From Candidatus Borrarchaeum weybense (GTDB lineage Archaea > Asgardarchaeota > Sifarchaeia > Borrarchaeales > Borrarchaeaceae): a stretch of DNA of 64,000 bases. Positions 21,330-55,835 of this stretch are shown here, piece after piece. The stretch spans positions 140,286 to 204,285 of the forward strand of contig JAHQJS010000008.1 of NCBI GenBank assembly GCA_019057385.1, in the 5' to 3' direction. The notes below the pieces were generated by a model. The model ran no database searches. It saw only the letters and a list, made by a program, of their open reading frames with translations, and was not told the origin of the DNA. Position 1 is the stretch's first letter. Each line of letters begins with the position of its first letter. A program made the position numbers and the translations under genes.

Positions 21330-21698
21330 ATGGAGGAAAAAGAAGGTGCATTACTAAGAATTCTTAAGGAGCTTAGAACAACAGTTGCATCAATAGAAGC
21401 GGCAGCAATAGTTAGCGTGGAAGGATTACCTATAACTAGTGACCTTCCTGGCGACATTGACGAAACGCGAATTGCTGCTATGACTGCTGCCATGCTTTCG
21501 CTAGGCGAAAGAGCAGCGATTGAGCTTGGCAAAGGTGAATTAGAAAGAATTTTTGTAGAAGGAAAAGATGGACACGTGATTGCGAGCGGTGCTGGAGAAA
21601 ATGCGGTGTTAACTGTTAGCACAATAAAAGGGGCGAAATTAGGGCTAATATTTTTAGAAATGAAACGTGCAGTAGAGAAAATATCTGAAATTCTCTGA
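21330..21698 (+). CDS. Roadblock/MglB-like protein
   Basis: IEAAAIVSVEGLPI, RIAAMTAAMLSLGER, KLGLIF. Confidence 0.92.
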   Translation: MEEKEGALLRILKELRTTVASIEAAAIVSVEGLPITSDLPGDIDETRIAAMTAAMLSLGERAAIELGKGELERIFVEGKDGHVIASGAGENAVLTVSTIKGAKLGLIFLEMKRAVEKISEIL

Positions 21699-21830
21699 CA
21701 TACTCCCACAGTTAAAGCAGTGAGGTTCTACATTTCTATGGTGAGAAATGAGGGGCGTGCCACCGCCCTGTTAACGACTCCCGCAGAGAGGAGTTCTCCC
21801 TGAGCGAGCCCTATATTTCCATTGATAATA
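21695..21830 (-). mobile_element. IS605-derived right-end/scaffold fragment G (family 5)
   Basis: Minus strand ends GAACCTCACTGCTTTAACTGTGGGAGTATGTCAG, a typical tnpB right-end hairpin. Confidence 0.65.
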
Positions 21831-21835
21831 ATTGC

Positions 21836-22040
21836 AGACAATTAAGCAAGAAAGCACCACCGCTTTAGCGTGGTGAGGAATTGCGTGGTGTTTATATAGT
21901 TTTTGGTAATAACACTCTTTGAGTACCTACGGGGCGTAGGGAATTTACGCCTGTGGAGATAAGACCTCCGTAACCCGTCAAGGGGATCGAGTCTGTCGTA
22001 GAAGCAGGAAGCCTCGAGGCTTTAGCACGAGGTAGCTCAC
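21836..22040 (+). mobile_element. ORF-less IS605-derived element H (family 2): left end, TTTATATA box, scaffold, right end GGTAGCTCAC
   Basis: Near-identical scaffold to element M in the opposite orientation. Confidence 0.88.
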
Positions 22041-22351
22041 CGAACTACACTGGACCACACCACAGGGGCTTCATCTTCTGTGATCCTACCAGAGGTCTTG
22101 TATCCCTGCCATCCCTGCCTTCCCTCTGATAGTCATACGTTGATTGATGCCTTTATGCACAGCCCCAGAGTCTATACCATCTCTCTGTCTTACCCACCCT
22201 CCACCAGACTGTGCGGCAATGACCACTTTACAGAGTGGGCCAAAACTATTTAAGTGTTAGGGAGACCCCGTGATGAAAATGATGGCAGTGAACATCAACT
22301 ACCGCAATTCATCCCACACCTGAAGCAGTGGGCTTTCTTGCTTAGCTACCT
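22041..22351 (-). mobile_element. Degenerate IS605-derived element I
   Basis: Left-end flank matches element E (CTTAC.GGTAGCTAAGCAAGAA); TTAAATA box; shares TGTGATCCTACCAGAGGT with element D. Confidence 0.7.
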
Positions 22352-22522
22352 GTAAGTTGTCCATAATAATACCCAAATGGAACTTTTTCTTTTTAAAACC
22401 TAAAAAAGGTTTAAATGAAAACGTGTCGTCAATAAAATGGTTTATAAGTTATATAGCTAAATGAACATTTATTATTTTCATATCAATATTCAAAGAGCTC
22501 GTTTCTCGAAAAAGAGCGTGAG

Positions 22523-24091
22523 GTGTTAAAATTGAGCGAAAAACGATCTACGCTTGATAAAGTAATGGAGGTATCACTTAGAAGGGGTCTAGTCTTCCCA
22601 ACTGCCGAAATCTACGGTGGTTTTGCGGGCGTTTACGATTTCGGTCCTGTAGGGAGCTTCCTAAGAGAAAATCTGATCAATTTTTGGTTACAATACTTTG
22701 TAAAAACTGAGATTGATCCTCCAGTTTACTTACTGAGTGGAGGAACTGTGTTACCTTTCGAAGTTCTAAAAGCTTCGGGACATGTTGACCACTTTGTTGA
22801 CCCCATCGTTTCATGTTCGTCCCCAGAATGCAAGACAGAATTCCGTGCCGATCATCTTATTGAAGATGCTACAGGACAATTTGTTGAAGGATTGGATGAA
22901 CAAGAATTAACTCGAATTATACGCGAGAATAATATAAGATGCCCAAACTGTGACTCTGAATTAGCTGACGTGACGATTTTTAATCTCATGTTGGCCACAA
23001 AGGTCGGTGCAGGTAAGGGCACTGTGGCGTATATGAGACCCGAGACCGCACAGATAATGTTCCTAGACTTCAAAAGAACAGCTATTAGCATGAGAGCGAA
23101 GCTTCCTTTTGGTATAGCTCAAGTTGGAAGTTCTTACAGAAATGAAATCTCACCGAGAAAAGGCCTTATTCGCCTAAGAGAATTCGAACAGATGGAAATC
23201 GAAATGTTTGTAGACCCCGCCACTCTAAATGAACAACCCAATTTTGATGAAATTAAAAATGTCAAGTTAAGACTTTTGACAAGAGAGGGTCAAGAGAAAG
23301 AACCACAAGAAATCTTAGAAATAACTGCAGACGAATCTGTAAAGCAGAATATCTTACCGAACCAATATTTTGCGTATTATTTAGCAAAAGAAACAGTTTT
23401 TTACACTCGTTGCGGTATTCCACGGGATAAATTCAGGTTTAGGCACATGAAACCCGAGGAGACGCCGCACTATTCAGGCGGGAACTGGGATTTAGAGATC
23501 GAATTACCAAGAGGCGAAAATTCACAAATAGTTGAGATTGTTGGCAACGCTTATCGTCAAGCCTATGATCTTGGTAATCATGCAAAACATAGCGGTGAAG
23601 ATCTCAGTATTGAGACAGAAAATGGCGAAAACATCATCGCTCATGTTGTTGAACCTTCATTCGGAGTAGACAGAAGTACTCATTGTATCTTAGAACACTG
23701 TTTCAGAGAAAAAGGTGTCGATAGAGATTGGACATGGTTTCAATTTCCTAATGTTATCGCACCAATTTCGGTTCAAGTCTATCCTTTAATGCGAAAAGAT
23801 GGGATGCCTGAAAAGGCAAGGGACATTTATGTCAAATTAAAAAAAGATGCTGGATTTAATGCTATATATGATCAGGCTGGATCTATTGGAAGGAGATATG
23901 CACGTGCTGACGAAATCGGATGTCCTTATTGCTTAACAATAGACTATACAACATTAGAAGATGACTCCGTTACAATACGTGACCGCGATTCGATGAAACA
24001 AATCCGAGTACCTTTAAGTAAACTTGTCGATATACTGAGACAATTACTTGAGGAAAACATCAAATTTGCAGAGGCAGGTCAGCCTGTCTAG
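22523..24091 (+). CDS. glyS: Glycine--tRNA ligase (alpha2 type)
   Basis: EIYGG..G.YDFGP, RPETAQ, RNEISPR.GLIRLREFEQME, EPSFG.DR, GSIGRRYARADEIG. Confidence 0.97.
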   Translation: MLKLSEKRSTLDKVMEVSLRRGLVFPTAEIYGGFAGVYDFGPVGSFLRENLINFWLQYFVKTEIDPPVYLLSGGTVLPFEVLKASGHVDHFVDPIVSCSSPECKTEFRADHLIEDATGQFVEGLDEQELTRIIRENNIRCPNCDSELADVTIFNLMLATKVGAGKGTVAYMRPETAQIMFLDFKRTAISMRAKLPFGIAQVGSSYRNEISPRKGLIRLREFEQMEIEMFVDPATLNEQPNFDEIKNVKLRLLTREGQEKEPQEILEITADESVKQNILPNQYFAYYLAKETVFYTRCGIPRDKFRFRHMKPEETPHYSGGNWDLEIELPRGENSQIVEIVGNAYRQAYDLGNHAKHSGEDLSIETENGENIIAHVVEPSFGVDRSTHCILEHCFREKGVDRDWTWFQFPNVIAPISVQVYPLMRKDGMPEKARDIYVKLKKDAGFNAIYDQAGSIGRRYARADEIGCPYCLTIDYTTLEDDSVTIRDRDSMKQIRVPLSKLVDILRQLLEENIKFAEAGQPV

Positions 24092-24287
24092 TTTTTTAAT
24101 TAACCTTGTTCCATCTTTGTGGTGGTATTTATATTTTTTTAATATTTCATTAGATTAGTGTACATACCGATCGCTAACTCCTCGTTCTTCGATTAAAGTG
24201 CTTCCTAGCGATAAAATATTTAAGTATCGGAATGGATTAATCTAAGTATCGGATGTATGGATCGCCCCGCTCCAGGAGACTCGCCCT

Positions 24288-24707
24288 ATGGCAAAGAAAA
24301 AGAAAAAAGAATCAAAAGCAAGCCAAGAACAGAAAATTCAGGCACTCCTTGATGAACTGATCGATGGTGAAGAGATCACGGATGGTGCCGTTGTCAGTAC
24401 TGTTGGATTACCTATAGTCAATAACTTTTCTGAAGATATGCCTGAAATCACTATAAGTGCTATGGCATCCTCAGTTTTAGCAATAGCAACAGAGGGACAT
24501 GGTTCTCCTGATCTTGGCGAAATGAAGGCAGCAATTTTAGACTTCAATAATGGTAGTATCATCTTAAAAAAGATCTATGGACCTAATTATCTTGGTATTC
24601 TTATTATCTATACAACTTTGCAGACGTCAAATCAAATTAGTTCTTTATTAGATAGAATTGAAATATCTGCTGCTAAATTAGCAACAATCATGTTAAATTC
24701 CCAATAA
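24288..24707 (+). CDS. Divergent roadblock/LC7 protein
   Basis: GAVVSTVGLPI, ISAMASSVLAIA. Confidence 0.75.
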   Translation: MAKKKKKESKASQEQKIQALLDELIDGEEITDGAVVSTVGLPIVNNFSEDMPEITISAMASSVLAIATEGHGSPDLGEMKAAILDFNNGSIILKKIYGPNYLGILIIYTTLQTSNQISSLLDRIEISAAKLATIMLNSQ

Positions 24708-24857
24708 CATACATGAACGGTTTGCCATTAACCAATACTAAAAACTAGATCAACTATTCTTCTTCTTTTTCAAAATATTTATTTTCTTAATGAATGATGA
24801 AGCAATTAGCTGTTTTTTTAATGATTGTGATTTTTCCTGATAGTGTTATTAAAGCGC

Positions 24858-26555
24858 TCACATATATCCTAAGCCTTTTAATCGTTCCATGATTTCTAAT
24901 TCTTCCTCTTTAGTAAGTATTTCTCGTTCATCATCTTCTATTTCTTCATTCTTTCTTGTTTCTTCTTCGATTTTTTCTAATCTGTTGTAAAGAACTGAAT
25001 TAGTATCAAATATGTTTCTGAGAACGTTTCCATCCATCATTTGAGGAATTGGTATATCCAATATGTGCAAAATTGTTGGTGCGATATCCATAACATTTGC
25101 CTCTACTTGGACAGGGTGTATATCTTTTCCAAATGACATGAAAACTCCGTTAATATCATGTGCAGCCTTCCAAATATGTCCATTTGGTTCATTCGTTGAT
25201 TTTTGCGCCAGATCTTTTTTATTGCTAAATATATCATTTCCGAAACCACCAAACATGGCAAACCCATCATTTAATTGAATTAATAGATCTGGTGCATCCT
25301 TTAAATATGGGCCAGCATAGATTTCTTCACGTTTGTAGATTTTTGATACTATTTTTCTGCCCGTTTCTGGTTCAGTGAGTTTAGAGAGTTTAAATGCAAT
25401 CGAATCTCGCAAATCATTATATTCTTCTGGATTAACTATTCCATTCTGTTCTCTGCCCTTTAAATTAATTCTTAAACCTTGACCAGTAAAAGAGTAAGAA
25501 AAAGCTTTAGTTTTATGCCAATCACAATATTTACGAATATTACTTAAATTTAGTGCAAAAAATGAAATGAGACGTTTTGGAATCACCTTATGAAGTATCT
25601 TGTACCATTTCGAGTGAGCATGTCTCATTAGTACAGCATTACTACTTTCGGTAGTAAAACCATGCTTAATTAACCATGCTGAGAAGGAGCCTTGGCTTTT
25701 AAGATGAAGCAATCCTATGCTTTTTAGCCAGTTGTTAATATAGAAGTCTCGTTTTACTTGTTGAAACCCGTGATCCGATACAATAAAATTAATTGTGTTC
25801 TCATCAAGTTTTTGAAGAATTTCACTAATAATCGAATCTATCAACTCATAATATTTGAGAATGACATTATACCTTATTGCTCCTTTTGATGTGTTCATCT
25901 GAAGATGAGTGTCCCAAAGAAAGTGTTGTAGACGATCTGAACCGACAAATATAACCATAAAAAAGTCCCAATCTTTTTCTTCCATTAAATATAAAACTGC
26001 GCGTTTTCTTGCTTCTGTTAGATGGTAAATGTCATTTACAAAGATTGATTTATGATTTAAATAAAATTCTTCTACATCCACATCTATACGATAATCAGGC
26101 ACGTTGTCAAGTAATTCCTGCTTTAAAGAATTTGGATAGGTAAAATTACTTTCCATTCCAGGTGATCCCAATCCTGAGATCATTAATCCATTAACCTTTT
26201 CAGGTGGATAGGTAAACGGAAAATTCACTATGACTGTCTTTTTACCATTTTCATTCAATATATGCCATATTGCTTTACCCTTCCGCTTTTTTAAGTAACT
26301 TAATTTGAGATCATAACCATCAGAAGTTTCTGCAAAGAAATCAAAAATCCCATGTCTTCCAGGATTCGTTCCTGTGACAATTGAGGTCCACGCCGGCGGA
26401 CTAAGCGGTGGAATTGTACTCTTAAGAAATCCGCTTGCACCTTGTTTAACTACTTTAGAAAAGGTAGGAAGCTTATGTAAATTGGGTTTAATTATTTCAA
26501 AAGTTGCACCATCAATTCCTATTACAAAAACCTTCTTTTCAGCCATATGTTTCAC
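24858..26555 (-). CDS. Alkaline-phosphatase-superfamily nucleotide pyrophosphatase/phosphodiesterase
   Basis: VIGIDGA, STIPP.S.PAW.S..TG.NPG.HGI.DF, DRLQH, VSDHG, C-terminal RLKGLGY. Confidence 0.9.
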   Translation of the reverse strand: MKHMAEKKVFVIGIDGATFEIIKPNLHKLPTFSKVVKQGASGFLKSTIPPLSPPAWTSIVTGTNPGRHGIFDFFAETSDGYDLKLSYLKKRKGKAIWHILNENGKKTVIVNFPFTYPPEKVNGLMISGLGSPGMESNFTYPNSLKQELLDNVPDYRIDVDVEEFYLNHKSIFVNDIYHLTEARKRAVLYLMEEKDWDFFMVIFVGSDRLQHFLWDTHLQMNTSKGAIRYNVILKYYELIDSIISEILQKLDENTINFIVSDHGFQQVKRDFYINNWLKSIGLLHLKSQGSFSAWLIKHGFTTESSNAVLMRHAHSKWYKILHKVIPKRLISFFALNLSNIRKYCDWHKTKAFSYSFTGQGLRINLKGREQNGIVNPEEYNDLRDSIAFKLSKLTEPETGRKIVSKIYKREEIYAGPYLKDAPDLLIQLNDGFAMFGGFGNDIFSNKKDLAQKSTNEPNGHIWKAAHDINGVFMSFGKDIHPVQVEANVMDIAPTILHILDIPIPQMMDGNVLRNIFDTNSVLYNRLEKIEEETRKNEEIEDDEREILTKEEELEIMERLKGLGYM

Positions 26556-26557
26556 CG

Positions 26558-26678
<121 letters not shown>

Positions 26679-26682
<4 letters not shown>

Positions 26683-28700: not shown

Positions 28701-28725
28701 CTTGGAGGTTAGGTGGTGTATTAAC

Positions 28726-29022
28726 TTGGATATTTCAAGTAGAATTTATTGGATGAAGGTTCTCTTAGGTGTAGTAATAGGTCTTATAAACGGTTTTATT
28801 GGTATAATCCATTGGCCAGGAGTTGTGATAGGTGTAGCCGCCCTTTTTGTCACTTATCCACTTTCTCTCTTATTGATACGTTACACTGGAGGTCAATCTC
28901 CTGAGGCAGCTCAGTTAAAACCATTTAAAATCTTGACAAATGGCTTACCTGCCTACTTATTCGTATGGGTCGTAACTTGGACAGTAATTTTTAATTTGCT
29001 AAATCCAGGTGCTTTTTTCTAA
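28726..29022 (+). CDS. Small 3-TM membrane protein, EMC6/Rab5-interacting-like
   Basis: TTG start after GGTGGT; IYW.K...G...G.I.G..G and GL..YLFVWVVTWTVIFN pattern. Confidence 0.6.
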   Translation: MDISSRIYWMKVLLGVVIGLINGFIGIIHWPGVVIGVAALFVTYPLSLLLIRYTGGQSPEAAQLKPFKILTNGLPAYLFVWVVTWTVIFNLLNPGAFF

Positions 29023-29073
29023 AAGAAGCACCCTTCAATTCTATCTATTAGATAATGTCAAATGCCCTTCATC

Positions 29074-29222
29074 GTGAACTACCCCACTCTTACGGATGGG
29101 GCTTCCTGCGAGTCCTCCTAACTCCCTACGATGGGAGAAACTTTCGTTTTACACTTGGCTGTGTGTCGCAGATTATCGAGAAATACCCGATAGCCTGTCC
29201 ACTTGGCATTCTGTGATAGGTA
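29074..29222 (-). ncRNA. Predicted omega-RNA scaffold overlapping the tnpB 3' end (predicted guide GATGAAGGGCATTTGACA...)
   Basis: Position at the right end; hairpins conserved with compensatory changes in element K. Confidence 0.75.
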
Positions 29223-30362
29223 ACGTTTCATGAGGATGATTGCACTATTTTTGTCCCTCTCTATCACGTTACCACAGTCACATCTCATAACTCGTTTCCA
29301 AATTGGCATAAAGTGCTGTTTGCCGTACATCCAACATTCTTTGGTCGAGTTTCGTTCGTCACTTTCTATTGTCCTTTTACCTACTCGCCTCGACTTGTAG
29401 GTTAGAAAATGCACGAACCGTCCCAGCGCCCCTGTGTTCTGTGTAGCGCGGTTCAACCCCGCTCTCATGGCTTTCGGCACCTTGTTCGACTGTGCCATGC
29501 ATTTGACTTCTAGCTGGCCTACGATCAGAGTGTTAGCTTTGGTGTTCTCCACCAGTTTCCTGCTGAGTTTATGTTGAAAATCACGTGTCTGATCATCCCG
29601 CTTCCGCTCGTATTTCTGTTTGATCTGATTGAGCAATTTCCATCTGTTGCTGAATTTCTTACACTTATCCTTCCGCGATTGTACCTTGGCGATTTTCGGA
29701 TTCCAATATTTGTCCGGGCGCTGATTTTTCACCATCAAGAACTTGCTCTGGGAATTTACTGCCGTAACGATATGGGTAATGCCGAGGTCGATGGCTTGAT
29801 ACCGACCGTTATCTACAAAGGGGGGTTCTTCCAACTCATAGGTGATGGTCACAAAATATCGCCCTCTATGTGATGAGATGGCGACTTGTTTTACCTGTGT
29901 ATCGTCAAAAGAGAATTTGTCAGGGATGGTAAATTCCAGTGGTATATCATTGTATTTGTGGGAAAAGGTAATCATTCCGGGTTCGATCTTGAACCCTGAC
30001 TGGTTATACACCATAGTGGTGAAGTAGTTTTTTCCTTTGAATCGCGGGAGACAGGCCTCGATGTGCCCGTTTTTTCGAAGGGCAAAGAACGACTCGTAAT
30101 CAGCAGCTAATGCCCTGAGAGCATACTGTAAGACCTTAGAATACACCCACTTATACTCTGGGAATTGCTCTTTGATGAGTGGCAGGTCGTTTTGCTGCTT
30201 GCGGTAATTCACACCCTTTGCTCCAGTTCTATAGGCGTCCATTCTTTCAGCAAGGGCAAAGTTATAGATGAGTCTGCATTTTTCCGAGAGTTTCCAAAGC
30301 ACAGTTTTTTGTGCGTGATTCGGAAAGATCCTGATTTTCTGTGTGAGTTTCATGGATTTCAC
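29118..30362 (-). CDS. tnpB: RNA-guided endonuclease TnpB (rearranged RuvC-II type)
   Basis: N-terminal HTH (IYNFALAER), RuvC-I AIDLG, RuvC-II LIVGQL with alternative DERNSTKEC, RuvC-III ERDKNSA. Confidence 0.93.
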   Translation of the reverse strand: MKSMKLTQKIRIFPNHAQKTVLWKLSEKCRLIYNFALAERMDAYRTGAKGVNYRKQQNDLPLIKEQFPEYKWVYSKVLQYALRALAADYESFFALRKNGHIEACLPRFKGKNYFTTMVYNQSGFKIEPGMITFSHKYNDIPLEFTIPDKFSFDDTQVKQVAISSHRGRYFVTITYELEEPPFVDNGRYQAIDLGITHIVTAVNSQSKFLMVKNQRPDKYWNPKIAKVQSRKDKCKKFSNRWKLLNQIKQKYERKRDDQTRDFQHKLSRKLVENTKANTLIVGQLEVKCMAQSNKVPKAMRAGLNRATQNTGALGRFVHFLTYKSRRVGKRTIESDERNSTKECWMYGKQHFMPIWKRVMRCDCGNVIERDKNSAIILMKRYLSQNAKWTGYRVFLDNLRHTAKCKTKVSPIVGS

Positions 30363-30902
30363 CAGACTCTGATATTACTAGTTATACCCAAAAAGTCTAT
30401 ATAAGACCAGTGGCTTTCATCCCCTACCTGTCGGAGGGGGACTTCCCACCGATTAAGTTAAAAGATATTTGTCAAGTTAAACTTTTCAAGTATCCTCTTT
30501 TATTTTCAATATGTAAATAACAATGAAATCTCAGAAGTTTTGAGATTTCGCAATGTAGTATTCCTAGAAAAATGCTTTATTGAAAGAAATGTCAAATTTC
30601 CATAGAATATTTTCTTCGTATTCCGTTAAATAAACGCATTAACTATAAATAAAGACTATAAAAATAAAGATTAGATTAATAGACTTATCTTACGTAAACT
30701 ATAACTTTGTTAGCCTTGTTAAGGCTCTTTTAATTTGCAGAACTTTTAGCTAAAAAATTCTATGGAATTTGAGAATTTCGCAAAAACGTTTAAATAGTCG
30801 AACGTCACTATGTAAGAGAATGTGAACCATTCAAATAAGATTGAGAAATATGAACTATCCAGATATAATTGTTAAGAGAATTGAGTTGAGTGAGGGAAAG
30901 AT

Positions 30903-31394: not shown

Positions 31395-31408
31395 TGAGAG
31401 GGGAAATA

Positions 31409-32155: not shown

Positions 32156-32199
32156 AACATCTTTAAGCCAATAAACACAATTTTCGTTTCTTTATCCTT

Positions 32200-41908: not shown

Positions 41909-41918
41909 AGGAAAACAC

Positions 41919-43909: not shown

Positions 43910-44374
43910 CCACTTAAGGCACCCCCAATTAGACCTCTTTTGAGTCTAACGGATTCTTAGTTAAGGGATTTTGAAAACATATGATACGGGGGGTTTTTTA
44001 AAGTTTTTGTAAATGATTTTTTGTATGCTATATACCTATATGATACTCTATGTTTAAGTCGCAAAAACATTTTGTATAGTTTGCGGAGGATTTCACTACA
44101 AAATTAAAAAGCACCATTTTTCAAAATAGTAATTAATTTTATCGAAATAGCGAAGGGGAACGCAAAGATGGATCTTCAACTAAGAATGTTACAAATCTTC
44201 TTTGCGAAAACCGGGAAACTCACGTAAAAAATTGCGATATTTGAGAAATATTTAAATATGATCTATGAGAATATTGTAATGTATCTTCAATACCCTACTA
44301 TATATTCGCGATTTAGACTCTCATTGAATAAGAAATTCAAATGAGAATTTCGATAAAAACGAGGCTGTGTTCTC

Positions 44375-45334: not shown

Positions 45335-45371
45335 ATATTATATTAAATGGCATTATCCTTCTTTTTTTTAA

Positions 45372-45672
45372 TTTTATTGGCGGGAAGTCCCCTTGCGCCA
45401 GCTGGGGGATGAAAGCCGCAAGGTTTTTATAGTGTTTTGCACAGAAGAGTTCTGATGAATATCGAGAGGAAAGCAGGGATACAAGACTCTTGATAGGAAG
45501 GCAGTATGGTGTGATTTTGAAACCTGAGGGTTGCTATCACAGAATGCCAAGTGGACAGGCTATTCTCTTTAGAGGGTAATCTGCGACACACAGCCGAACG
45601 TAAAACGAAAGTTTCCCGCAAGGGTTGGGAGGACTCGCAGGAAGCCCCATCTGAAAGGGTGGGGTAGTTCAC
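45372..45672 (+). mobile_element. ORF-less element K: left end + TATA + omega-RNA scaffold cognate to the 29-kb TnpB + right end
   Basis: About 140 nt homologous to the tnpB 3' end with conserved hairpins; same TTTAA + 7 nt left-end geometry. Confidence 0.9.
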
Positions 45673-47054
45673 TGAACATGTTGATACCATCGTTTATATT
45701 CCACTAATGCCCCTAATGTTCTAATAGCTCTTTCTGGTAGTGTATGAACTGGAATTTTGTTCCACTCTAAAAATCTTTTATATTTTTCAAATTGCTTAAA
45801 TGTGCTTCCCAAGCAGGATATAATAGGTTTTTTACTGCTTTTCATAACTGCAACAAGTGTTTTGATTGTCTGAAACTCGATATTTGGACCACTTGGGATT
45901 GTTACGACAAGCACAGAATCAACTTGTGGGTCGCTTAGAATGAGTTTTGTTACCCATTCATATCTCTCCGTGTCAGCATCCGCTGCTAAATCAACTGGAT
46001 TTGAAGGGGTACAATGTTGAGGTAAACTATGCAATTGTTCAAGCGTTTTACTGCTAAACTCTGCAAGACGTAAATCATTATTTTCAAGAGCATCTGCTGC
46101 TAAGACACCATGTCCACCACTATTTGTTATTATACCCACATTATTTCCTTTAGGTAATGGTTGAGTTGCAAAGCAATAGCAAATATCAAGGAGTTCTTCT
46201 AGATCCTTTGCAGTGATTACACCTGTTTGTTTGAACATTGCTTTAAATGATTCTACAGAACCTGCGAGAGACCCAGTATGTGATTTTGAAGCTTTTGCTC
46301 CTGCTTCTGTTTTTCCAACTTTGCAAATAATAACGGGTTTTGCTTTAGTAACCTCTCTTAGTGTCTTGTAAAATCGTCTTCCTTCTTTTACACCCTCAAC
46401 ATACATTCCGATAACTTTAGTGGTTGTATCTTGTTTTAAATATCCTAGAAGATCGCTTTCATTTACATCTATGGCATTTCCATAAGAACATGTTTTACTA
46501 ATTCCTATCCCCCGATATGCACACCATTCAAGTAGTGTTACAAGGATTGCTCCAGATTGGGATAACAACGCAATATTTCCTTTTGTTGGATATCCTATTG
46601 TCCTTTCACGTGGTACAAGAAAACTATTGATTCCAGAATAAGGATCAAATATACCAATACAATTTGGACCAATGATTTGCATTCCATACTTATGAGCAAT
46701 TTTTGTGATTTCATTTTCTCTTTCAGTTCCTACTTCATTTCCTGTTTCTCCAAAGCCTCCAGTGACAATTATAATTACTTTAACTCCCTTTTCTCCGCAT
46801 TCTTGAACAATCTTAGGAACTTGTTGTGCTGTTAAAGCTATTATTGCAAGATCCACAGATTCAGGAATATCCTTTATTTTGGAATAAACAGGAGTGTTCA
46901 AGATTTCATCTGCATAAGGATTAATTGGATAAATTGTACCTTTGTATTTTTGGAGAATCATGTTCTCTAGAATTATGTACCCGATTTTTCCTTTATTCCT
47001 ACTTGCTCCGATTATAGCAACATTAAGGGGAGAAAAAAAAACTTCTAATGATAT
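45669..47054 (-). CDS. acdA: ADP-forming acyl-CoA synthetase alpha subunit; in-frame N-terminus extends to an ATA codon at 47054
   Basis: (I/M)SLEVFFSP.NVAIIGAS..KGKIGY, IIGPNC.G, SQSGA, SHTGSLAG, TNSGG.GVL. Confidence 0.88.
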   Translation of the reverse strand: MSLEVFFSPLNVAIIGASRNKGKIGYIILENMILQKYKGTIYPINPYADEILNTPVYSKIKDIPESVDLAIIALTAQQVPKIVQECGEKGVKVIIIVTGGFGETGNEVGTERENEITKIAHKYGMQIIGPNCIGIFDPYSGINSFLVPRERTIGYPTKGNIALLSQSGAILVTLLEWCAYRGIGISKTCSYGNAIDVNESDLLGYLKQDTTTKVIGMYVEGVKEGRRFYKTLREVTKAKPVIICKVGKTEAGAKASKSHTGSLAGSVESFKAMFKQTGVITAKDLEELLDICYCFATQPLPKGNNVGIITNSGGHGVLAADALENNDLRLAEFSSKTLEQLHSLPQHCTPSNPVDLAADADTERYEWVTKLILSDPQVDSVLVVTIPSGPNIEFQTIKTLVAVMKSSKKPIISCLGSTFKQFEKYKRFLEWNKIPVHTLPERAIRTLGALVEYKRWYQHVQ

Positions 47055-47144
47055 TCATATCACCTTAAGTAGTAGATTATTATTTGTTTTAATTGCATGA
47101 TTCGTTCTGTAATCTTTTAGATGTTTCAGCCTTAATTTTTTTAT

Positions 47145-47472
47145 CTAATTTCGCAAGAAGACTCCTCAACTTGTGGGGGGGATGAATTGCGGTAGAGTGT
47201 CTTACTTTCACGCAGGTCACCCTAAACTTAAATAGTAGTTACCTATCATCTAAATGTATAGTATGCTGAGGTGTCTGGCTTGGCGTTAAGGGCGTAAACA
47301 AGACACAGTACCGATGAGGGTACTGTCGGACCTCAAGTGTCCCTTGAGGGACGGGGGCTGCCGTGGACCAGCCCGAAATGTCGATGACTAGGTTTAATGT
47401 GACCAACCGTGTTGGCTAAGCAGAACAGCCTAGGAGGGCAGAAGCTACCTAACTTGTTTGGTGGTAGTTCAC
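47145..47472 (+). mobile_element. ORF-less IS605-derived element L (family 3) with a highly structured scaffold
   Basis: Left-end hairpin + TTAAATA; stems GTGTCT/AGACAC, ACAGTACC/GGTACTGT, CCTCAAG/CTTGAGG, GGGCTG/CAGCCC; ends GGTAGTTCAC. Confidence 0.85.
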
Positions 47473-47496
47473 AGGATAATCTGATATCTAATTCCT

Positions 47497-49572
47497 ATGT
47501 TCAGATTAACAAAATACAAGAAAATAGCGTTTCTTTTTTTCTTGGTTATGTTGTTTGTAATTCCAATATTTCTAACTTCATATCCAGATAATAACGCCCA
47601 AATTATCAAACTAGATATAATTAAACCTAAAAAAGTTCATGCAGGCAATCGGTTGAAGATTGAAGGAAGTGTAAAATATCTTGGACCTTTTAGTAGTTCT
47701 TTAGATGTCGTTCTTTTGGTGAATGGAACTCGAGAGCAGACTCGAAGGATTTTTATATCGAGTTATCAAACTATTAATATCTCATTTTTTTGGACGCCCG
47801 CAAGAAAAGGAGCGTATTTAGTTTCTTTGAGAATATATAATTCGCCCACCTCATTCAAGGAGAGCCCAGTCCTCACTATACAAGTTGATTCCATAGCAGG
47901 TCATCAAAAATATACCATGGCCTTATATCATTTTAATGTTCAATATGTTCCAGGATCAACTGCTATTGAAAATCGAGTTATAGAAGAATCGTTTTACCCA
48001 CTCCTCAAAATGTATCAGCGTCATAGCACATGGAGATGTAATATTGAACTTAGTGGCTATATGCTCGAACTCTTGCATCAGAGATATCCCCATATATTAG
48101 ATTTTCTCAAGTTTCTTGTGAGTGAAGGGAAAATTGAACTTATTGTAAGTCATTATTCAGAGCAGTTTTTAGTGGCATATCCTCGAACTGATATGGCAAA
48201 ATCAATAGAGATCTCAGATTCATTGCTTGATTCCTTAGATCTCGTTCGCTCTGGATTATTTTTTGCACAAGAGAGCCAGTGGACACCTGGATATGCTGAA
48301 CTGCTTAACGCGTACGACTATGATACAGTTGTCGTATCAAGTGATCCATTCTATAATTACTTGCATCAAAGAATGAAAATAACATCTCCACTTTACTTCT
48401 TAGAAGATAATTCAACTCAATCTCTTAGTGCTGATGAAAGGCAAGTAAATGTGCTTCTTTTTACAAAACCTAAACTTATCAATGATATAGAATTTCGTTG
48501 GTCTTGGGCTTATGATGGAGAATTTGCCAATACTTATGCTTACAATAATGACTTTCGCTATGATTCATCAAGAGCACAAGCACATGAAAACAAATTGGAA
48601 AAATATGAGGCAGAAGGATACTATTTCGCTTTCATAAGCGAGATCGTATCATTGCTAAATGAGATGACTGACCCTGAAAGAATTCCAAAAATTCCAGAAG
48701 CAACTTGGGACATGAAGAAATGTAAAGGTGTTTGGCGATGGATGGGTGACAATATAGCTGATTATGAAGATGATGCCTTTGTAAGAGCATATACTTATCA
48801 GGCACGACAAGAGGCACTAGTTGCTGAAGTATTGCTTGAAAAAACCCGTGAAAAGGGAATAGATGTTTCAGATGAAGAACAAACGCTTCTCAACATTTGG
48901 AAGCAAATCTTACTTGCAGAGGTATCAGATTCAACTGGATGGTTTCCTTGGGAGATTGAAGTTAAAGAATCAATTAAACTTACAGATTCTGCTCTCATAT
49001 TATTGGATAATGTAATTGCGGAATTGAAAATGAAATTAGGATATCAAGATAGTCTGTTAAAGGTAGATCCTTCTAAGAACACCATTTCAAAGGTTTCATC
49101 AATTAGTTCCCCGGAACCTACATCTACTCCTAATCTAAACATGAAAATTAAAGGCGGTCCTTATCAAATAAATTATACTAAGGGAGAATTTGGTGTAACA
49201 ATCAATATCAAGATGTTTCTTGAAGAGAAAAGTACGGTTGAAATCAGATTTCCTGCCGAGAATAGTATCATGTATTCTCCCAGTCTGGCAGAGAACACAT
49301 TAATCACTTTAAACCCGTCAGATATCCATGAAAATCCATATTTGCCACTTTCTAACGGTTTAGTGATAATTAATGGCAGTAAAGCCATTATAAAACATTG
49401 TGCCGAACGTCATATGGCAATGCAATGGAATCGCGACAAGTATATCGTCTTTAAAGAAAATTCAGTCAGTGGGAATCTTACTTATTCATTCACGTTCGTA
49501 GAAGACATATTCTACTTCAATTTCATTTATATTGCAAATTCAATCAATGTCTATCCACATTTGATTGTTTAA
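47497..49572 (+). CDS. Secreted/membrane-anchored GH57-like glycoside hydrolase with N-terminal Ig/CARDB-like domain, copy 1
   Basis: HFN.QY, ESFYPLL, LSGYMLE, G.F.AQE, DGE, EVSDSTGW motifs. Confidence 0.72.
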   Translation: MFRLTKYKKIAFLFFLVMLFVIPIFLTSYPDNNAQIIKLDIIKPKKVHAGNRLKIEGSVKYLGPFSSSLDVVLLVNGTREQTRRIFISSYQTINISFFWTPARKGAYLVSLRIYNSPTSFKESPVLTIQVDSIAGHQKYTMALYHFNVQYVPGSTAIENRVIEESFYPLLKMYQRHSTWRCNIELSGYMLELLHQRYPHILDFLKFLVSEGKIELIVSHYSEQFLVAYPRTDMAKSIEISDSLLDSLDLVRSGLFFAQESQWTPGYAELLNAYDYDTVVVSSDPFYNYLHQRMKITSPLYFLEDNSTQSLSADERQVNVLLFTKPKLINDIEFRWSWAYDGEFANTYAYNNDFRYDSSRAQAHENKLEKYEAEGYYFAFISEIVSLLNEMTDPERIPKIPEATWDMKKCKGVWRWMGDNIADYEDDAFVRAYTYQARQEALVAEVLLEKTREKGIDVSDEEQTLLNIWKQILLAEVSDSTGWFPWEIEVKESIKLTDSALILLDNVIAELKMKLGYQDSLLKVDPSKNTISKVSSISSPEPTSTPNLNMKIKGGPYQINYTKGEFGVTINIKMFLEEKSTVEIRFPAENSIMYSPSLAENTLITLNPSDIHENPYLPLSNGLVIINGSKAIIKHCAERHMAMQWNRDKYIVFKENSVSGNLTYSFTFVEDIFYFNFIYIANSINVYPHLIV

Positions 49573-50075
49573 TGCATGGTTTCAAAAAATTATGAACAAG
49601 GCCTTCTTGTATATTTTATTTATGCGAAGTATGGGTGGTCAACTGTTGATAGTTTTATGGACAAATCTTGCCAAATGTAGTCAAATATCTCGTTTGAGAC
49701 AAGTATTTCGTGGTGAAAGCTGATGAGCTGGGTTCACCTGTTACCCGCTAATAGAAACGCTGTCTTTTTATAGTGGGTTACCCTAGAGTATATCTGCCAG
49801 TAACTGACTGGACTCACACATCACCACCATCCTCACTTGGGAATGATCGCAGTCATGACCTCTCTAACGCAAAGTTATCCACTCAAACTCCCACAAGATA
49901 CTACCTTACGCCACCAACTGGATATATTACGGGATCTGGTTCTACACGCCGCTCAACTGTCCTAGCGGGGACACCATTCACGTCCTTCTTCAGACTGTGA
50001 GTGGATAGACCTTGTTACTACTTGTCTATAGTTGTAAAGAAATGTCTATGATGAAAGGAACGGTGTCTATGGTAC

Positions 50076-52151
50076 ATGCGGATATTAACAAAAAAAAAGA
50101 CAATCTTTCTCTTCTTGTTAGTCATTTTGTTTACAATATCGATATTTTCAACACATCTCTCAGATGCTTCTGCTAGAATAACTGATTTACGTGTAATTAA
50201 ACCAAAAAAAGTTCATATGGGCAATCGTCTAAAGATTGAAGGAAGTGTACAATATCTTGGAACTGGTCTTCGTTCTTTTTATGTCTCACTCATGGTAAAT
50301 GAGACTCAAAATCAAACTGAAAAGATTTCAGTAGCGAATTTTCAAACAATAAATGTCTCATTCTTTTGGACACCTGAACGAAATGGAGTATATACAATTT
50401 CTTTGAGACTGTATAAATCGCCTTCTTCATTTGAGGAAAGCATCCCTCTCAATATTCATGTTGATTCTATCTCAGGTTATCAGAAATATACTATGGCACT
50501 TTACCACTTCAATGTTCAATATGTTCCAGGATCTACCACGATTGAAAATCGTATTATTGAGAAATCGTTTTACCCGCTCCTTAAAATGTATGAGCACCAT
50601 AGCACGTGGAGATGTAATATTGAACTAAGTGGCTACATGCTCGAAATTTTATATCACAAATACCCTCAATTATTAGATCTTCTAAAGAACCTGGTGAATG
50701 AAGGACAAATAGAACTTATAGTGAGTCATTACTCTGAGCAGTTGTTAGTAGCGTATCCACGAACAGATATGGCAAAATCAATAGAAATTTCAGACACAAT
50801 ACTTGATTCTTCAGATCTCGTTCGTTCTGGAGTATTTTTTGCACAAGAGAGCCAGTGGACACCTGGATATGCTGGATTGCTTAATACCTATGATTACAAC
50901 ACCGTAGTTGTATCGAGCGATCCATGGTATTATTATCTTCCGAATAGAATGAAAATGAACTCACCACTTTTTTATTTAGAGGATAACTCGTCACAGTCTC
51001 TTGGTTCTGATAAACGACTGTTAAATGTGCTTCTTCACAAAAAGGATGGAAATGTTAATGGTATAGATTACCACTGGGCTTATGCCTCTGATGGAGAAAC
51101 TGCTAATACCTTCGCTTATCAGAACAATTTTCGATACGATTCTCAAAAAGAACAAAATCACGAACAAAAATTGAGAAAAATTGCAACAGAATATCATTTT
51201 GTTTTTATCAGCGAATTTGTTGCCATGTTACGAGAAAAGAACGTTGAACGAGAAAAAATCCCAGTCATCCCAGAAGCAACTTGGAAAATGAGGAAAAGTG
51301 AAGGGGTTTGGCTATGGATGGGTAATAATAGCGCTCGTTATGAAGATGATGCCTTTATTCGAGCATATACGTATCGAGCACGACAAAAAGCGCTCGTAGC
51401 CGAATCATTACTTAAGATAACGAGAGCAAAGGGAATAGATGTCTCAGACGAAGAGCGAATGCTTCTCAACATCTGGAAGCAAATCTTACTTGCAGAGGTA
51501 TCAGATTCAACAGGATGGTTTCCATGGGAGATTGAAGTTAAAGAATCTGTTCGTCTGACAGATTTAGCACTAGAATCTCTGGATAATGTAATTGCGGAAT
51601 TGAAAATGAAATTAGGATATCAAGATAGTCTGTTAAAGGTAGATCCTTCTAAGAACACCATTTCAAAGGTTTCATCAATAAACAAACCTGTACTCGTTCC
51701 TACGCCTCCATTACATATAACTGTGAAAGGCGGTCCTTATCAAATTAATTATACTAAGGGAGAATTTGGTGTAACACTCAATATCAAGATGTTTCTTGAA
51801 AAGAAAAGCACAGTTGAAATCAGATTTCCTGCCGAAAATAGCATCATGTATTCTCCTAGTCTGGCAGAGAACACATTAATCACTTTAAATCCGTCAGATA
51901 TCCATGAAAATCCATATCTACCGCTTTCTAACGGTTTAGTGATAATTAATGGCAGTAAAGCCATTATAAAACATTGTGCCGAACGTCATATGGCAATGCA
52001 ATGGAATCGCGGCAAATATATCGTCTTTAAAGAAATAGCTGCCAGTGGGAATCTTACGTACTCCTTTACTTTTGTGGAGGCTACCGTTTATCACTTTACT
52101 TTCGTTGATATAGCAAATTCAATTAATGTCTATCCTGTATTGGTTATTTAG
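50076..52151 (+). CDS. GH57-like glycoside hydrolase, tandem copy 2
   Basis: Same length (691 aa) and motifs as copy 1. Confidence 0.72.
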   Translation: MRILTKKKTIFLFLLVILFTISIFSTHLSDASARITDLRVIKPKKVHMGNRLKIEGSVQYLGTGLRSFYVSLMVNETQNQTEKISVANFQTINVSFFWTPERNGVYTISLRLYKSPSSFEESIPLNIHVDSISGYQKYTMALYHFNVQYVPGSTTIENRIIEKSFYPLLKMYEHHSTWRCNIELSGYMLEILYHKYPQLLDLLKNLVNEGQIELIVSHYSEQLLVAYPRTDMAKSIEISDTILDSSDLVRSGVFFAQESQWTPGYAGLLNTYDYNTVVVSSDPWYYYLPNRMKMNSPLFYLEDNSSQSLGSDKRLLNVLLHKKDGNVNGIDYHWAYASDGETANTFAYQNNFRYDSQKEQNHEQKLRKIATEYHFVFISEFVAMLREKNVEREKIPVIPEATWKMRKSEGVWLWMGNNSARYEDDAFIRAYTYRARQKALVAESLLKITRAKGIDVSDEERMLLNIWKQILLAEVSDSTGWFPWEIEVKESVRLTDLALESLDNVIAELKMKLGYQDSLLKVDPSKNTISKVSSINKPVLVPTPPLHITVKGGPYQINYTKGEFGVTLNIKMFLEKKSTVEIRFPAENSIMYSPSLAENTLITLNPSDIHENPYLPLSNGLVIINGSKAIIKHCAERHMAMQWNRGKYIVFKEIAASGNLTYSFTFVEATVYHFTFVDIANSINVYPVLVI

Positions 52152-52353
52152 CTTGTTTTTTCCAAAAACCGCATCGTGGACATCTCTGAATGCCATGAGA
52201 GCTTAGTATATTCATCTGATACCCACATCTAGGACATGAGAGCCCATCATTCATTCGTTTGGATAAATCTTCCAATACTTCCACCGCGCGCGGGTAATAC
52301 ATGGATGTTACGGGTTGTTTACATTTATAAATATTTGCTTCGCGCGTATCCAA
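52144..52353 (-). CDS. Small Zn-ribbon protein (start possibly ATG 52302)
   Basis: CPRCG...CPRCG. Confidence 0.6.
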   Translation of the reverse strand: MDTREANIYKCKQPVTSMYYPRAVEVLEDLSKRMNDGLSCPRCGYQMNILSSHGIQRCPRCGFWKKQAK

Positions 52354-52461
52354 TTAGACGAAAAAATCTATATTATTTTCAAATATCTGTGTAAATAGTA
52401 CTATATTTTTAATATCTATCATCTCACTGAAAACCTACATTGGTGTTTCAACTATTTTGAA

Positions 52462-53163
52462 ATGAGAAAAAGTGGAGGTAATTTCTTGATTATTGAGAGT
52501 ATTGAACGTCCGTCCAAAGATATAATCAATGGATTATCAAAATATCCAACGGCTTTATTATCTGATGCAATGGAAAAAAGTCAGGCTATGCATAGTGAGA
52601 TTAAACCTGTTATACCGATAGAAAAGGTTGTTGGTCCTGCTATTACAGCAAGGACAATGGTCGCTGACTATTTGACGCCTGTTGCAGCTATTGATTATGC
52701 TGAACCGGGTGATGTACTTGTTATCGATGTCCGAGGCCATCGCGATACAGCGATCTGGGGTGGGTTGGCTTCAACTTCTTGTAAATCCAGAGGAATCGTT
52801 GCTGTAATCATCGATGGTGCTATAAGAGATGTAGCTGAAATAAGAAAAATTCAATTTCCTGTATTTGCTCGTGCTGTAACTCCAAATGCTGGTGATTGTT
52901 CCGTACTTGGAGATATTAATGTTCCAATTCAATGCGGCGGAGTATTAGTAAATCCAGGTGATATTGTCGTAGCTGATACTGACGGAGTCGTAATAGTGCC
53001 AGCAAATAGAGCCGTTCAAGTTCTTGAAAAAGTGAAAAAGCAAGAAGAAATCGAGGAAAAGATTCGGCAGTTAATGTCACAGGGTCTTTCCTGCTATGAG
53101 GCATTAAAAGATGTATGTGGAGGATTTACAATAACTGTAGGGAAAGATGTGGAAATTCCCTAA
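52462..53163 (+). CDS. RraA/HMG-aldolase family protein
   Basis: LSDAM, GPA.T, PGDVLVID, AIWGGL, IDGAIRD, V.PGDIV.AD.DGVV. Confidence 0.9.
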   Translation: MRKSGGNFLIIESIERPSKDIINGLSKYPTALLSDAMEKSQAMHSEIKPVIPIEKVVGPAITARTMVADYLTPVAAIDYAEPGDVLVIDVRGHRDTAIWGGLASTSCKSRGIVAVIIDGAIRDVAEIRKIQFPVFARAVTPNAGDCSVLGDINVPIQCGGVLVNPGDIVVADTDGVVIVPANRAVQVLEKVKKQEEIEEKIRQLMSQGLSCYEALKDVCGGFTITVGKDVEIP

Positions 53164-53186
53164 CAAATATTGAAATTTGTGCGTAA

Positions 53187-54413
53187 TTAGACATGTCCGC
53201 GTCCAAGACGTTCATGTGCGCCAGTCAGATGAAGTGCAGACTGTGCCGATAACAAACTTATATCTCCAGCCAGTGCCGCTGCCGCGACAATCTCTGCAAA
53301 CCTTTTTCCCATTGCTCCTGGTGGATCACCGGGACCTTGACATCCTATTATAGCAAGTGCCTCACTTTGAGTTGGTAACCCTGTACCTCCACCAAATGTT
53401 CCGGTCTCAAGGGAGGGTATGGTAACAGCTATATATAGATCCCCGTCTTCTGTCACCTCTGGAGTGACAATAGACATGCTTGAATCTGTTATATGCGCTG
53501 CATCCTGACCTGTAGCTAAGAAGATGGCTGCAATAATATTCGCCACATGAGCATTAAATCCTAAAGTTAATGCCTGTGCTCCGCCTAAAAATAATTTTCG
53601 ATAGGCAAGTTCTGCTATACTTTCAGGAGTGGTTTTTAATACATCTTTTACGACTTCTTTCTTCAGGATAACCTCTGAAATCACAGTTTTACCGCGTCCT
53701 AGTATCCAATTAATTGCGCTAGGTTTCTTATCTACACACACATTACCTGATTCACTGATTAATTTTGCATAGGGCTGTTCTTGTGTTATGAAATCGCAAG
53801 CAAATCGAGCACCTCTTGTTACAGTATTCATACCCATTGCGTCATAAGTATTGGCACGAAAACGAAGGAAGACAGTTCTTCCAACTATCCAAGGTTCGAT
53901 ATTTATCAAGTTTAGGAATGGATCAGTATCATCAAAAACCTTGACAATTTCTTGATGATTTTCGCGTACCCAGCTTATAAGTTTATAAGCATGTTCTAAG
54001 TCAGGAACTTTCAAAGCAGGTGCGCGAGTAATTCCATCTCTAATAATTTTAGATTTTGCCCCGCCACTTCGCGTAATAGCAGTACAACCTCTATTCGTAC
54101 TCGCTACGAGTGTACCTTCAGTAGTGGCAAGAGGTATATAAACTTCTTCATCAATATAATCGCCAGTGACTTTAAGAGGACCTGCGATGCCAATCGGAAT
54201 TTGTGCACAACCTATGGAATTTTCTATATTTCTTTTTGCAGTTAAATTCATGTCCATAGAGTAGTTTCCGATATTCTTAAGCGATATGTCTCTCATCTTT
54301 TCTAAAACTTTCCTTCTGATTTCTGAAGCTATATTAACGTCATTTCCAACGTGTTCTTCAATCCTGTAAAACTTGATTTCTCCTTTGATTACTTTATTAA
54401 CAATTTCATCCAT
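53187..54413 (-). CDS. hmgA: Hydroxymethylglutaryl-CoA reductase (class I, NADPH)
   Basis: NIEN.IG, PLATTEG.LVAS..RG, DAMGMN, DKKPS, ATGQDAAH, GT.GGGT. Confidence 0.96.
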   Translation of the reverse strand: MDEIVNKVIKGEIKFYRIEEHVGNDVNIASEIRRKVLEKMRDISLKNIGNYSMDMNLTAKRNIENSIGCAQIPIGIAGPLKVTGDYIDEEVYIPLATTEGTLVASTNRGCTAITRSGGAKSKIIRDGITRAPALKVPDLEHAYKLISWVRENHQEIVKVFDDTDPFLNLINIEPWIVGRTVFLRFRANTYDAMGMNTVTRGARFACDFITQEQPYAKLISESGNVCVDKKPSAINWILGRGKTVISEVILKKEVVKDVLKTTPESIAELAYRKLFLGGAQALTLGFNAHVANIIAAIFLATGQDAAHITDSSMSIVTPEVTEDGDLYIAVTIPSLETGTFGGGTGLPTQSEALAIIGCQGPGDPPGAMGKRFAEIVAAAALAGDISLLSAQSALHLTGAHERLGRGHV

Positions 54414-54685
54414 TTTTTTCCCCTCAAAAGCGTCTAGACTAGAAATAGTCGTCTTAGGGATATAATTGGTAGATTATTCCAACCTTATAAACTTGTTTCA
54501 TTTCTCATTAGCAATAAATCACATGCAAACTTATCTCATGTCATCGAAAAACTAATCATATTAAACTTAATGATTAATTGCGTCAAATGCGGATTTCATG
54601 CAACATTATAAATGATACAAAAAAGTGTTATAGTGTAAAAACAGAACAAAAGCTTAAGGACAAAAACAGTTAGAGGAAGAAAAAT

Positions 54686-55183
54686 ATGAACAAAACCAAA
54701 CAAGCATATGATCTTGGATTTAAATACGAAAAAGAATATTATGGCTGTTCCCAATGCGTGTTATTAGCGATTCAAGATACTTTTAATTTAGAAAATGAGA
54801 CGGTCTTTAAATCTGCTTCTGGCCTTGCTGCAGGGATTGGCTTGCTGGGATCGGTTTGCGGTGCATTAACAGGTGGCGTAATGGCATTAAGTTTAAAATA
54901 TGGTCGTGATTTACAAGCTTTCAAGGCAGGTGATCCAGAAGGTAAACGTCTCAAGGCTTATGAAAAAGCAAGAAAGTTGTATAAACGCTTTGAAGATGAA
55001 TATGGAAGTGTTATCTGCAAAGATATTCAAAAGAAAATTTTTGGTCGTTCTTATAATTTGAATGATCCGCAAGATTTTAAAGAATTCGAAGAGGCTGGCG
55101 CGCATGTTGATAAATGTCCTGGTGTTGTTGGAAGAGTTGCGCAATGGGTTGCAGAAATAATACTCAAAGATAATGAAAAATAA
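54686..55183 (+). CDS. C_GCAxxG_C_C family putative redox protein
   Basis: GCSQCVL, VCGALTGG, GSVICKD, KC. Confidence 0.9.
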   Translation: MNKTKQAYDLGFKYEKEYYGCSQCVLLAIQDTFNLENETVFKSASGLAAGIGLLGSVCGALTGGVMALSLKYGRDLQAFKAGDPEGKRLKAYEKARKLYKRFEDEYGSVICKDIQKKIFGRSYNLNDPQDFKEFEEAGAHVDKCPGVVGRVAQWVAEIILKDNEK

Positions 55184-55226
55184 TTTCTCGAAAAAGGATT
55201 AACAGCCTATTGCCATAATTGAGGGA

Positions 55227-55631
55227 TTGACAATGAGTTTTTTTAAAATGATTACAACAGAGATTGATGTTTTGTTGACCACCGTACGAACCATAGAGCA
55301 AGGTAAAAGTGCTGATTCCGATAAAGAAAGCAAAAAATACTTCGATGAAGCCGCAATCGTGTTGTTACACACAGAAGATATGAAAAAATTAAGTGTAGAA
55401 AATAATAAACCTGTTAAGATACGTACGAAATATGGTGAAGTAGTTGTGAAAGTAAAAGAGTCAGAAGAAACTAAGGAAGGCATCGCATTAATTCCTGTTG
55501 GTCTTTGGGCTAATATGACGATGGGAAATTCAGTTCAAAGTAATGGAATTCCTCTTTTGAAGAATATTCCTGCAACGATCGAATCGACGGATGAATCACC
55601 AGAGGATATACAGCATCTCACAAGCATATGA
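55227..55631 (+). CDS. fwdD: Formylmethanofuran dehydrogenase subunit D
   Basis: T.RTIEQG, YGEVVV, G...IP.G.WAN, G.P..K. Confidence 0.85.
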   Translation: MTMSFFKMITTEIDVLLTTVRTIEQGKSADSDKESKKYFDEAAIVLLHTEDMKKLSVENNKPVKIRTKYGEVVVKVKESEETKEGIALIPVGLWANMTMGNSVQSNGIPLLKNIPATIESTDESPEDIQHLTSI

Positions 55632-55835
55632 GCTACCTCGTGCTAAAGCATCGCGGCTTCCTGCTTCAACGACAGACGCGATCCCCTTGCGGGTTACGGA
55701 GGTCTTATCTCCACAGGCGTAAATTCCCTACGCCCCGTAGGTACTCATCAAGAGTATGACCTATACACTATATAAACACAACTACAGCAATTCATCACCA
55801 CGCTGAAGCTGTGGTGCTTTCTTGCTTTTCTTCAT
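55628..55835 (-). mobile_element. ORF-less IS605-derived element M (family 2) inserted between fwdD and fwdA
   Basis: Homologous to H and E; TTAC upstream of the left end; right end supplies the fwdD TGA. Confidence 0.88.

Follow-up and report, generated by a model that had tools for sequence, protein, structure and literature searches.

In a 64,000-nt window of the genome of Candidatus Borrarchaeum weybense (contig JAHQJS010000008.1, positions 140,286 to 204,285; G000:C8:140286-204285 in our numbering), four host genes, the roadblock/LC7 gene, rqcH, acdA and fwdD, terminate at a TGA that lies inside the reverse-complemented right end of an IS200/IS605-type element, as the original prediction described for all four. 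The same coincidence recurs across the genome far above expectation. We show below that the exchange of a TAA for a TGA stop is a corollary of the published rule relating the target and end motifs of IS200/IS605 elements, and we consider it probable that this chemistry, combined with survivorship and lock-in of the resulting insertions, accounts for the pattern without stop-seeking and without any new mechanism.

The right ends at the four stops all read ...GGTAG(T/C)TCAN, and the approximately 150 right ends in the window's own genome (G000, 4.18 Mb, 37% G+C) have in common a hairpin followed by GGTAG(T/C)TCAC; left ends carry a hairpin followed by GATGAA. Subterminal hairpins are present at both ends of the elements, terminal inverted repeats and target-site duplications are absent, and empty sites rejoin without duplication (fwdD, acdA, roadblock, rqcH, the X9 allele described below, and the sites in a KH-domain and a prenyltransferase-like gene). 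Directly 5' of nearly all left ends stands one of three targets (transposon-adjacent motif, TAM), namely TTAC in family B, TTTAT in family C and TTTAA in family A, and the related right-end motif (transposon-encoded motif, TEM) is T(T/C)CAC, found in 132 of 154 profile matches. These motifs agree with the general forms predicted earlier, TTAN for targets and TCAN for right ends. Judged by these sequence features, the stop-swap elements are assigned to an ordinary IS200/IS605 family made up of tnpB-only copies and many gene-less derivatives of the palindrome-associated transposable element (PATE) or miniature inverted-repeat transposable element (MITE) kind. The window itself contains one full-length tnpB-only element and several short gene-less relatives.

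Four window genes with an element-derived TGA

The genes, the elements that supply their stops and the displaced original stops are as follows.

21330..21698, plus strand: roadblock/LC7 gene (Pfam Robl_LC7), TGA at 21696-21698 from element Y
21695..22351, minus strand: element Y, derived from IS200/IS605 and without genes, with ...GTGGGAGTATGTCAG at its right end and the hairpin ...GGGATGAATTGC at its left
21836..22040, plus strand: element X, a B-type gene-less element of about 205 bp nested in Y; preceded by TTGC, end GGTAGCTCAC
22352..22355, plus strand: GTAA, the complement of the target TTAC; displaced original roadblock TAA, beyond the left end of Y
26589..26682, plus strand: remnant of a C-type right end, about 94 nt, ...CTACAAGTAGGGGTGGTAGTTCAC; the left end has been deleted, as has the original TAA
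26679..28700, minus strand: rqcH (NFACT) gene (Pfam NFACT_N and NFACT-R_1), stop from the right-end remnant
45372..45672, plus strand: element K, a 301-bp A-type gene-less derivative; preceded by TTTAA (45367-45371), right end ...GGGGTAGTTCAC
45669..46961, minus strand: acdA, ADP-forming acetyl-CoA synthetase alpha-type (Pfam Succ_CoA_lig, CoA_binding, Ligase_CoA_2)
55227..55631, plus strand: fwdD (Pfam Molydop_binding), TGA at 55629-55631 in ATGAGCTACC, the right end of M as read on the opposite strand
55628..55835, minus strand: element M, a 208-bp B-type gene-less element that contains a hairpin at its left end, TTTATATAG and a putative omega-RNA scaffold; right end ...GGTAGCTCAT, boundaries possibly 1 nt off
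55836..55839, plus strand: GTAA, the complement of the target TTAC; displaced original fwdD TAA, 25 nt before fwdA

The roadblock gene ends GAA ATT CTC TGA, in which CTGA comes from the right end of Y, ...GTATGTCAG, read in reverse complement. Excising Y in silico yields GAA ATT CTG TAA and leaves the protein unchanged. Among the four comparison genomes, all of the same genus (G001-G004), the orthologs of G001 and G002 have no element and end ...TTG TAA at the same codon, and in G004 a 47-bp terminal-only element occupies the same site (CTT TGA CATACTCCCAC...CCT GTAA). The codon before the TGA is CTC in G000 and CTT in G004, both encoding Leu. The site carries about 450 bp of Y plus a nested element in G000 against the 47-bp form in G004, a core deletion in the style of the Haloquadratum PATEs, and a full-length paralog of Y lies at G000:C5:168729-170100.

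The rqcH gene ends ...ACG TGA, its stop being the complement of TCA at 26679-26681 inside ...GGTGGTAGTTCAC, which ends at 26682. Orthologs without the element read GCA or ACA TAA at the same codon (G001, G003), and the remnant is also present in G004. Because the old TAA was deleted along with the left end, the gene now depends on the transposon TGA. An (ATG)n/(CAT)n microsatellite at 26560-26592, with about 11 units in G000 and about 6 in G004, abuts the remnant and may mark the deletion that took its left end. Two corrections to the original prediction follow: the element at rqcH is just a 94-nt remnant lacking a left end, and the roadblock site is a composite, with X nested in Y.

At acdA the coding sequence ends ...CAG TGA, the stop being the complement of TCA at 45669-45671 in K, so that the last codon has changed from CAT to CAG. 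The predicted outcome of removing K, ...CAT TAA, is what in silico excision gives and what is found in G002 (...CAT TAA AAAAAAG); the empty site of G004 reads ...CAG TAA AAAAAAAAG. In both genomes the protein length and the downstream flank are the same as in G000 beyond K.

In G000 fwdD ends ...ATA TGA within the right end of M, and the next gene, fwdA (Pfam Amidohydro_3), starts at 55865. Removal of M had been predicted to give AGC ATG TAA, and the empty site of G004 is exactly that, ...AGC ATG TAA GAGCCCCGAAGGTAGGTACACTGAC ATG, with a 26-nt spacer to fwdA. In addition, run X9 contains a 667-nt metagenome contig that matches the window at about 99% identity and passes from position 55628 straight to 55837, without the 208 nt of M, so that M is polymorphic in nature. 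Contig joints that 'go back 196/199' or 'skip 84' were not read as pertaining to M; their source is other family copies, in tandem or in terminal-only form. At all four genes the orthologs without the element have C-termini of the same length and no longer ones, in line with the expectation that antisense insertion at an N-TAA stop alters at most the last codon while turning TAA into TGA.

Right ends at stop codons across the genome

A profile made from right ends and run against the whole of G000 gave 154 matches, in 132 of which the TCA is in place, and a stop swap was scored wherever the TGA complementary to the right end terminates an open reading frame (ORF) of at least 100 aa. By this measure 17 of the 132 right ends supply a host stop. 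The roadblock site is an 18th case outside this count, since the Y-type right end is missed by the profile. The lengths of the ORFs in the TGA frame are bimodal, with 17 of at least 102 aa and the remainder almost all shorter than 60 aa. Genes for the null models were called crudely, as ORFs of at least 100 aa with greedy overlap removal (3,532 genes, 83% coding). If all target motifs are used equally, 1.1 cases are expected (Poisson p = 3e-15); if only tolerated motifs are used, that is, intergenic and stop-overlapping ones, 4.7 are expected (p = 8e-6). The enrichment anticipated from the four window sites is thereby found under both nulls. Reading frame provides a separate test: of the long antisense ORFs that run up to the junction, 17 are in frame with the TGA and each of the other two frames has 2 (p = 1e-5). 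By family, the counts are as follows.

Family B: 10 of 61 right ends at stops; stops make up 0.7-0.9% of all target motifs and 3.9% of tolerated motifs
Family C: 5 of 49 right ends at stops; stops make up 0.7-0.9% of all target motifs and 3.4% of tolerated motifs
Family A: 2 of 21 right ends at stops; stops make up 0.7-0.9% of all target motifs and 2.9% of tolerated motifs

Fourteen of the 17 profile-found ORFs carry a Pfam domain, and the host genes include those for ribosomal protein S10, a thiolase, a MeaB GTPase, DUF362 and DUF1028 proteins, a KH-domain protein, a HAD hydrolase and a giant Ig-like/RING protein. In the S10 gene (G000:C5:217319-217627) the TGA comes from a terminal-only B-type element of about 47 bp, ATGACCTACC...CTGTAA. 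The KH-domain gene reads ...GAA TAA ACGTTAC in G002 against ...GAG TGA, the element and ATAAACGTTAC in G000, its empty site GAA TAA A being consistent with cleavage after TTTAT; at this gene and at the prenyltransferase-like gene, congeners without the element stop at the same codon. The KH-gene insertion, like those at roadblock and rqcH, is common to G000 and G004. At E <= 1e-20, none of G001-G004 yielded an ortholog of the HAD-hydrolase gene (G000:C7:66266-66871). The DUF1028 gene (G000:C5:113008-113910) rules out the idea that an in-frame TGA always means an original TAA stop: here a 50-bp C-type mini-element, absent from G004 and G002, split the original TGA (TG|ATAAA) to give TGG TGA and thereby added one Trp.

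The distribution of the 17 cases among element types is uneven. If a right end is counted as tnpB-bearing when a tnpB zinc-ribbon domain is present no more than 600 nt upstream of it, none of 33 such copies is at a stop, compared with 17 of 99 gene-less ones (Fisher p = 0.007), and all 17 insertions are gene-less derivatives or right-end remnants. Stops account for 6 of 85 well-scoring right ends (7%) and for 11 of 47 poorly scoring ones (23%; p = 0.013), where the profile E-value serves as a rough proxy for element age.

The genome contains a single Pfam Y1_Tnp match above cut-off, a Y1 tnpA at G000:C7:194221-194586, against about 40 tnpB loci (TNB domain) and the roughly 150 right ends, and the gene-less and tnpA-less copies could be mobilized in trans by this one tnpA. 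Shortly downstream of this gene come a tnpB and an A-type right end at C7:195885. The full-length element of the window, which has TTTAA as its target (the complement of 30458-30462), is not at a stop codon, its antisense TGA-frame ORF being merely 22 aa long:

29074..30457, minus strand: full-length A-type tnpB-only element; tnpB at 29118-30362 (Pfam OrfB_IS605, Cas12f1-like_TNB, HTH_OrfB_IS605)

Elsewhere, at G000:C6:509683, a mini B-type element occurs in tandem, where the right end GGTAGTCCAC runs straight into a repeat of the 9-nt start of the left end, CTAAAACTA, and the metagenome contigs with 'goes back' joints may match an arrangement of this type. Between acdA and fwdD, the window also holds two tandem 691-aa paralogs (47497-49572 and 50076-52151; at the DNA level, repeats spaced 2576 nt apart with 75-92% identity), the first of which has a GH57 domain, and a C-type gene-less element (right end at 47472) is found just upstream of this pair.

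Register, proposed survivorship and the alternatives

The complements of the three TAMs are G-TAA, A-TAA-A and T-TAA-A, and that of the right end is G-TGA-(A/G), so that TAA and TGA stand in the same register relative to the cut. Stop swapping is therefore an automatic outcome of the known TAM/TEM chemistry: because the registers match, antisense insertion on an N-TAA stop yields ...xxG TGA. Correspondingly, the far flank is GTAA in every B-type stop-swap case. In the scheme that we propose, an IS200/IS605 element would insert into single-stranded DNA 3' of a TAM and end in a TEM, and upon landing antisense on an N-TAA stop would move the old TAA to its left-end side while presenting its own TGA in the same frame, thereby preserving the length of the protein and altering at most its last residue. 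For single-strand 'peel and paste' transposition of this kind, the presence/absence polymorphism of M in a natural population is indirect evidence. Such insertions should be near-neutral, even in essential genes and operons, while purifying selection would clear insertions elsewhere in genes and in many promoters, leaving the stop-swap copies to survive. Subsequent decay of the element would then produce lock-in, because the gene now relies on the element's TGA, with rqcH as the end state. Since all stop-swap copies are gene-less, the excess is larger among diverged copies and right ends elsewhere favour neither end of genes, we infer that survivorship and lock-in, rather than targeting or function, are the source of the excess.

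Several points weigh against this interpretation. There remains a residual excess of about 3.6-fold over the tolerated-sites null, which is itself built on crude gene calls; insertion itself could also favour stop codons or the 3' ends of genes to a modest degree; and profile E-values reflect the age of an element only roughly. The exact cut position at fwdD/M, moreover, is uncertain by 1 nt. Cleavage after TTAC/TCAT predicts AGC ATG TAA, as in G004, and the X9 empty allele reads AGC ATA TAA, as if the last bases of TAM and TEM had been exchanged. With cuts placed 1 nt earlier (TTA^ / TCA^), the X9 allele (ATA TAA) needs no mutation, and acdA of G004 (CAG TAA) also fits. The X9 sequence could instead reflect a polymorphism of the empty allele that changes the TAM from TTAC to TTAT, and the comparisons at the KH gene (GAA TAA vs GAG TGA), rqcH and roadblock, together with published biochemistry, favour the canonical cut after the full TAM/TEM.

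An active preference, by which the transposase or TnpB-guided homing would place or keep elements at gene 3' ends or stops, for example because DNA is exposed as a single strand where termination occurs or on the template of the lagging strand, could account for the same residual excess over intergenic and stop-overlapping motifs, and for a sharp peak of right ends located exactly at stops relative to the following 100 nt. We nevertheless regard it as unlikely. Right ends away from stops face gene 3' and 5' ends alike (54 vs 52), the best-scoring right ends show no significant excess (6/85 against 3.9%, p = 0.11), the excess rises with divergence, and the motif enrichment of stop codons has already been counted in the null. 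Little credit can be given to a broader conjecture, namely that the TAM/TEM pair (TTA-N / TCA-C) of this IS608/ISGst-like clade has itself been selected on the element for in-register stop complements that provide scarless sites at gene ends, including those of essential genes and of genes in operons, with the host using antisense RNAs made by some gene-less copies from their promoter-like TATA box and putative omega-RNA scaffold.

The original prediction further proposed that the insertions supply guides antisense to the last codons of host mRNAs. TnpB systems take as guide the 16-20 nt directly past the right end, and the natural DNA target of this guide is the empty allele, TAM plus flank, in keeping with a homing function (PMC10055086). 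At the stop-swap sites this stretch is indeed the reverse complement of the host gene end, so the proposed geometry is correct; the regulatory part of the proposal finds no such counterpart, with nothing indicating co-option. The sequencing runs surveyed included no RNA run, the single one labelled metatranscriptomic being probably DNA. As an explanation for the retention of the insertions, exaptation would hold that gene-less elements serve as genes for omega-RNAs and that the guides, taken from the flank, regulate the host, either at the level of RNA or by means of a TnpB/TldR-like protein in trans. Besides the guide geometry, it can draw on two segments that M has in common with full-length B-type copies, where they belong to the stretch immediately 3' of the tnpB zinc-ribbon (TNB) domain, with TTTATATAG upstream of these segments in M, and on the insertions common to G000 and G004 at roadblock, rqcH and the KH gene. 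This sharing, however, is accounted for by descent and lock-in. M is missing from a natural allele that is about 99% identical, and K from G002 and G004; the host genes share nothing; and the stop-swap copies lack tnpB. In an occupied allele the match to the guide is preceded by the TEM and no TAM, so that TnpB-type recognition is not expected (PMC10055086). The predicted fold of the M RNA is no better than that of shuffled sequences (z = -1.2), and Rfam gave no match in the whole window at the gathering threshold. Taken together, exaptation appears very improbable, and regulatory co-option of the stop-swap elements is pure speculation.

That repeat ends containing a TGA meet gene ends by chance, conceivable from just four sites in the window, is contradicted by the count across the genome, by the bias in reading frame and by the empty sites, and retains practically no likelihood.

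Implications and relation to known IS200/IS605 systems

The chemistry and survivorship that we favour would allow an abundant transposon family to persist harmlessly in compact archaeal genomes, within operons (fwdD-fwdA) and at the ends of essential genes (ribosomal protein S10), and would explain how a host gene becomes permanently dependent on a transposon-donated stop codon. For annotation, a TGA within ...GTGA(A/G)CTACC may signal a gene that ends in transposon sequence. Stop-swap sites also allow the empty site to be reconstructed to the exact nucleotide, which helps to date insertions and to predict natural guides and TAMs of TnpB. Our literature search, with most subscription journals outside its coverage, found no description of stop-codon replacement by IS200/IS605 ends.

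The family paradigm is IS608 of Helicobacter pylori, which has the target TTAC and the right cleavage site TCAA and carries both tnpA and tnpB. Like the elements described here, it has a TTAC target and a TCA in its right end, the complements of which, GTAA and TTGA, contain in-register stops, and it has neither inverted repeats nor a target duplication. Unlike IS608, the copies at stop codons here contain neither tnpA nor tnpB.

Among the closest known systems are the ISGst elements of Geobacillus stearothermophilus, for which the TAM/TEM concept, the TEM TTCAC, trans-mobilized tnpA-less copies and PATEs with omega-RNAs have been described (Meers et al. 2023, PMC10055086). ISGst and the present family share subterminal hairpins, a TAM 5' of the left end and an identical TEM, TTCAC. 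In both, many tnpA-less and PATE-like gene-less copies are presumably trans-mobilized by one TnpA. The right end of ISGst carries an omega-RNA with a flank-derived guide, a candidate counterpart of which is present here. The present family differs in its archaeal host and in its three coexisting TAMs (TTAC, TTTAT, TTTAA), and is known from sequence alone; stop codons are mentioned 0 times in the ISGst paper (PMC10055086).

Among archaea, PATEs of Haloquadratum walsbyi, described together with terminal-only forms of about 50 bp (52 bp), have not been related to host stop codons in the paper reporting them (PMC3119063). Like the elements studied here, they are gene-less IS605-type sequences with near-terminal palindromes, from which terminal-only forms of about 50 bp arise by core deletion (PMC3119063), and the 47-bp forms that we find at the G004 roadblock site and at G000:C4:585228 match this description.

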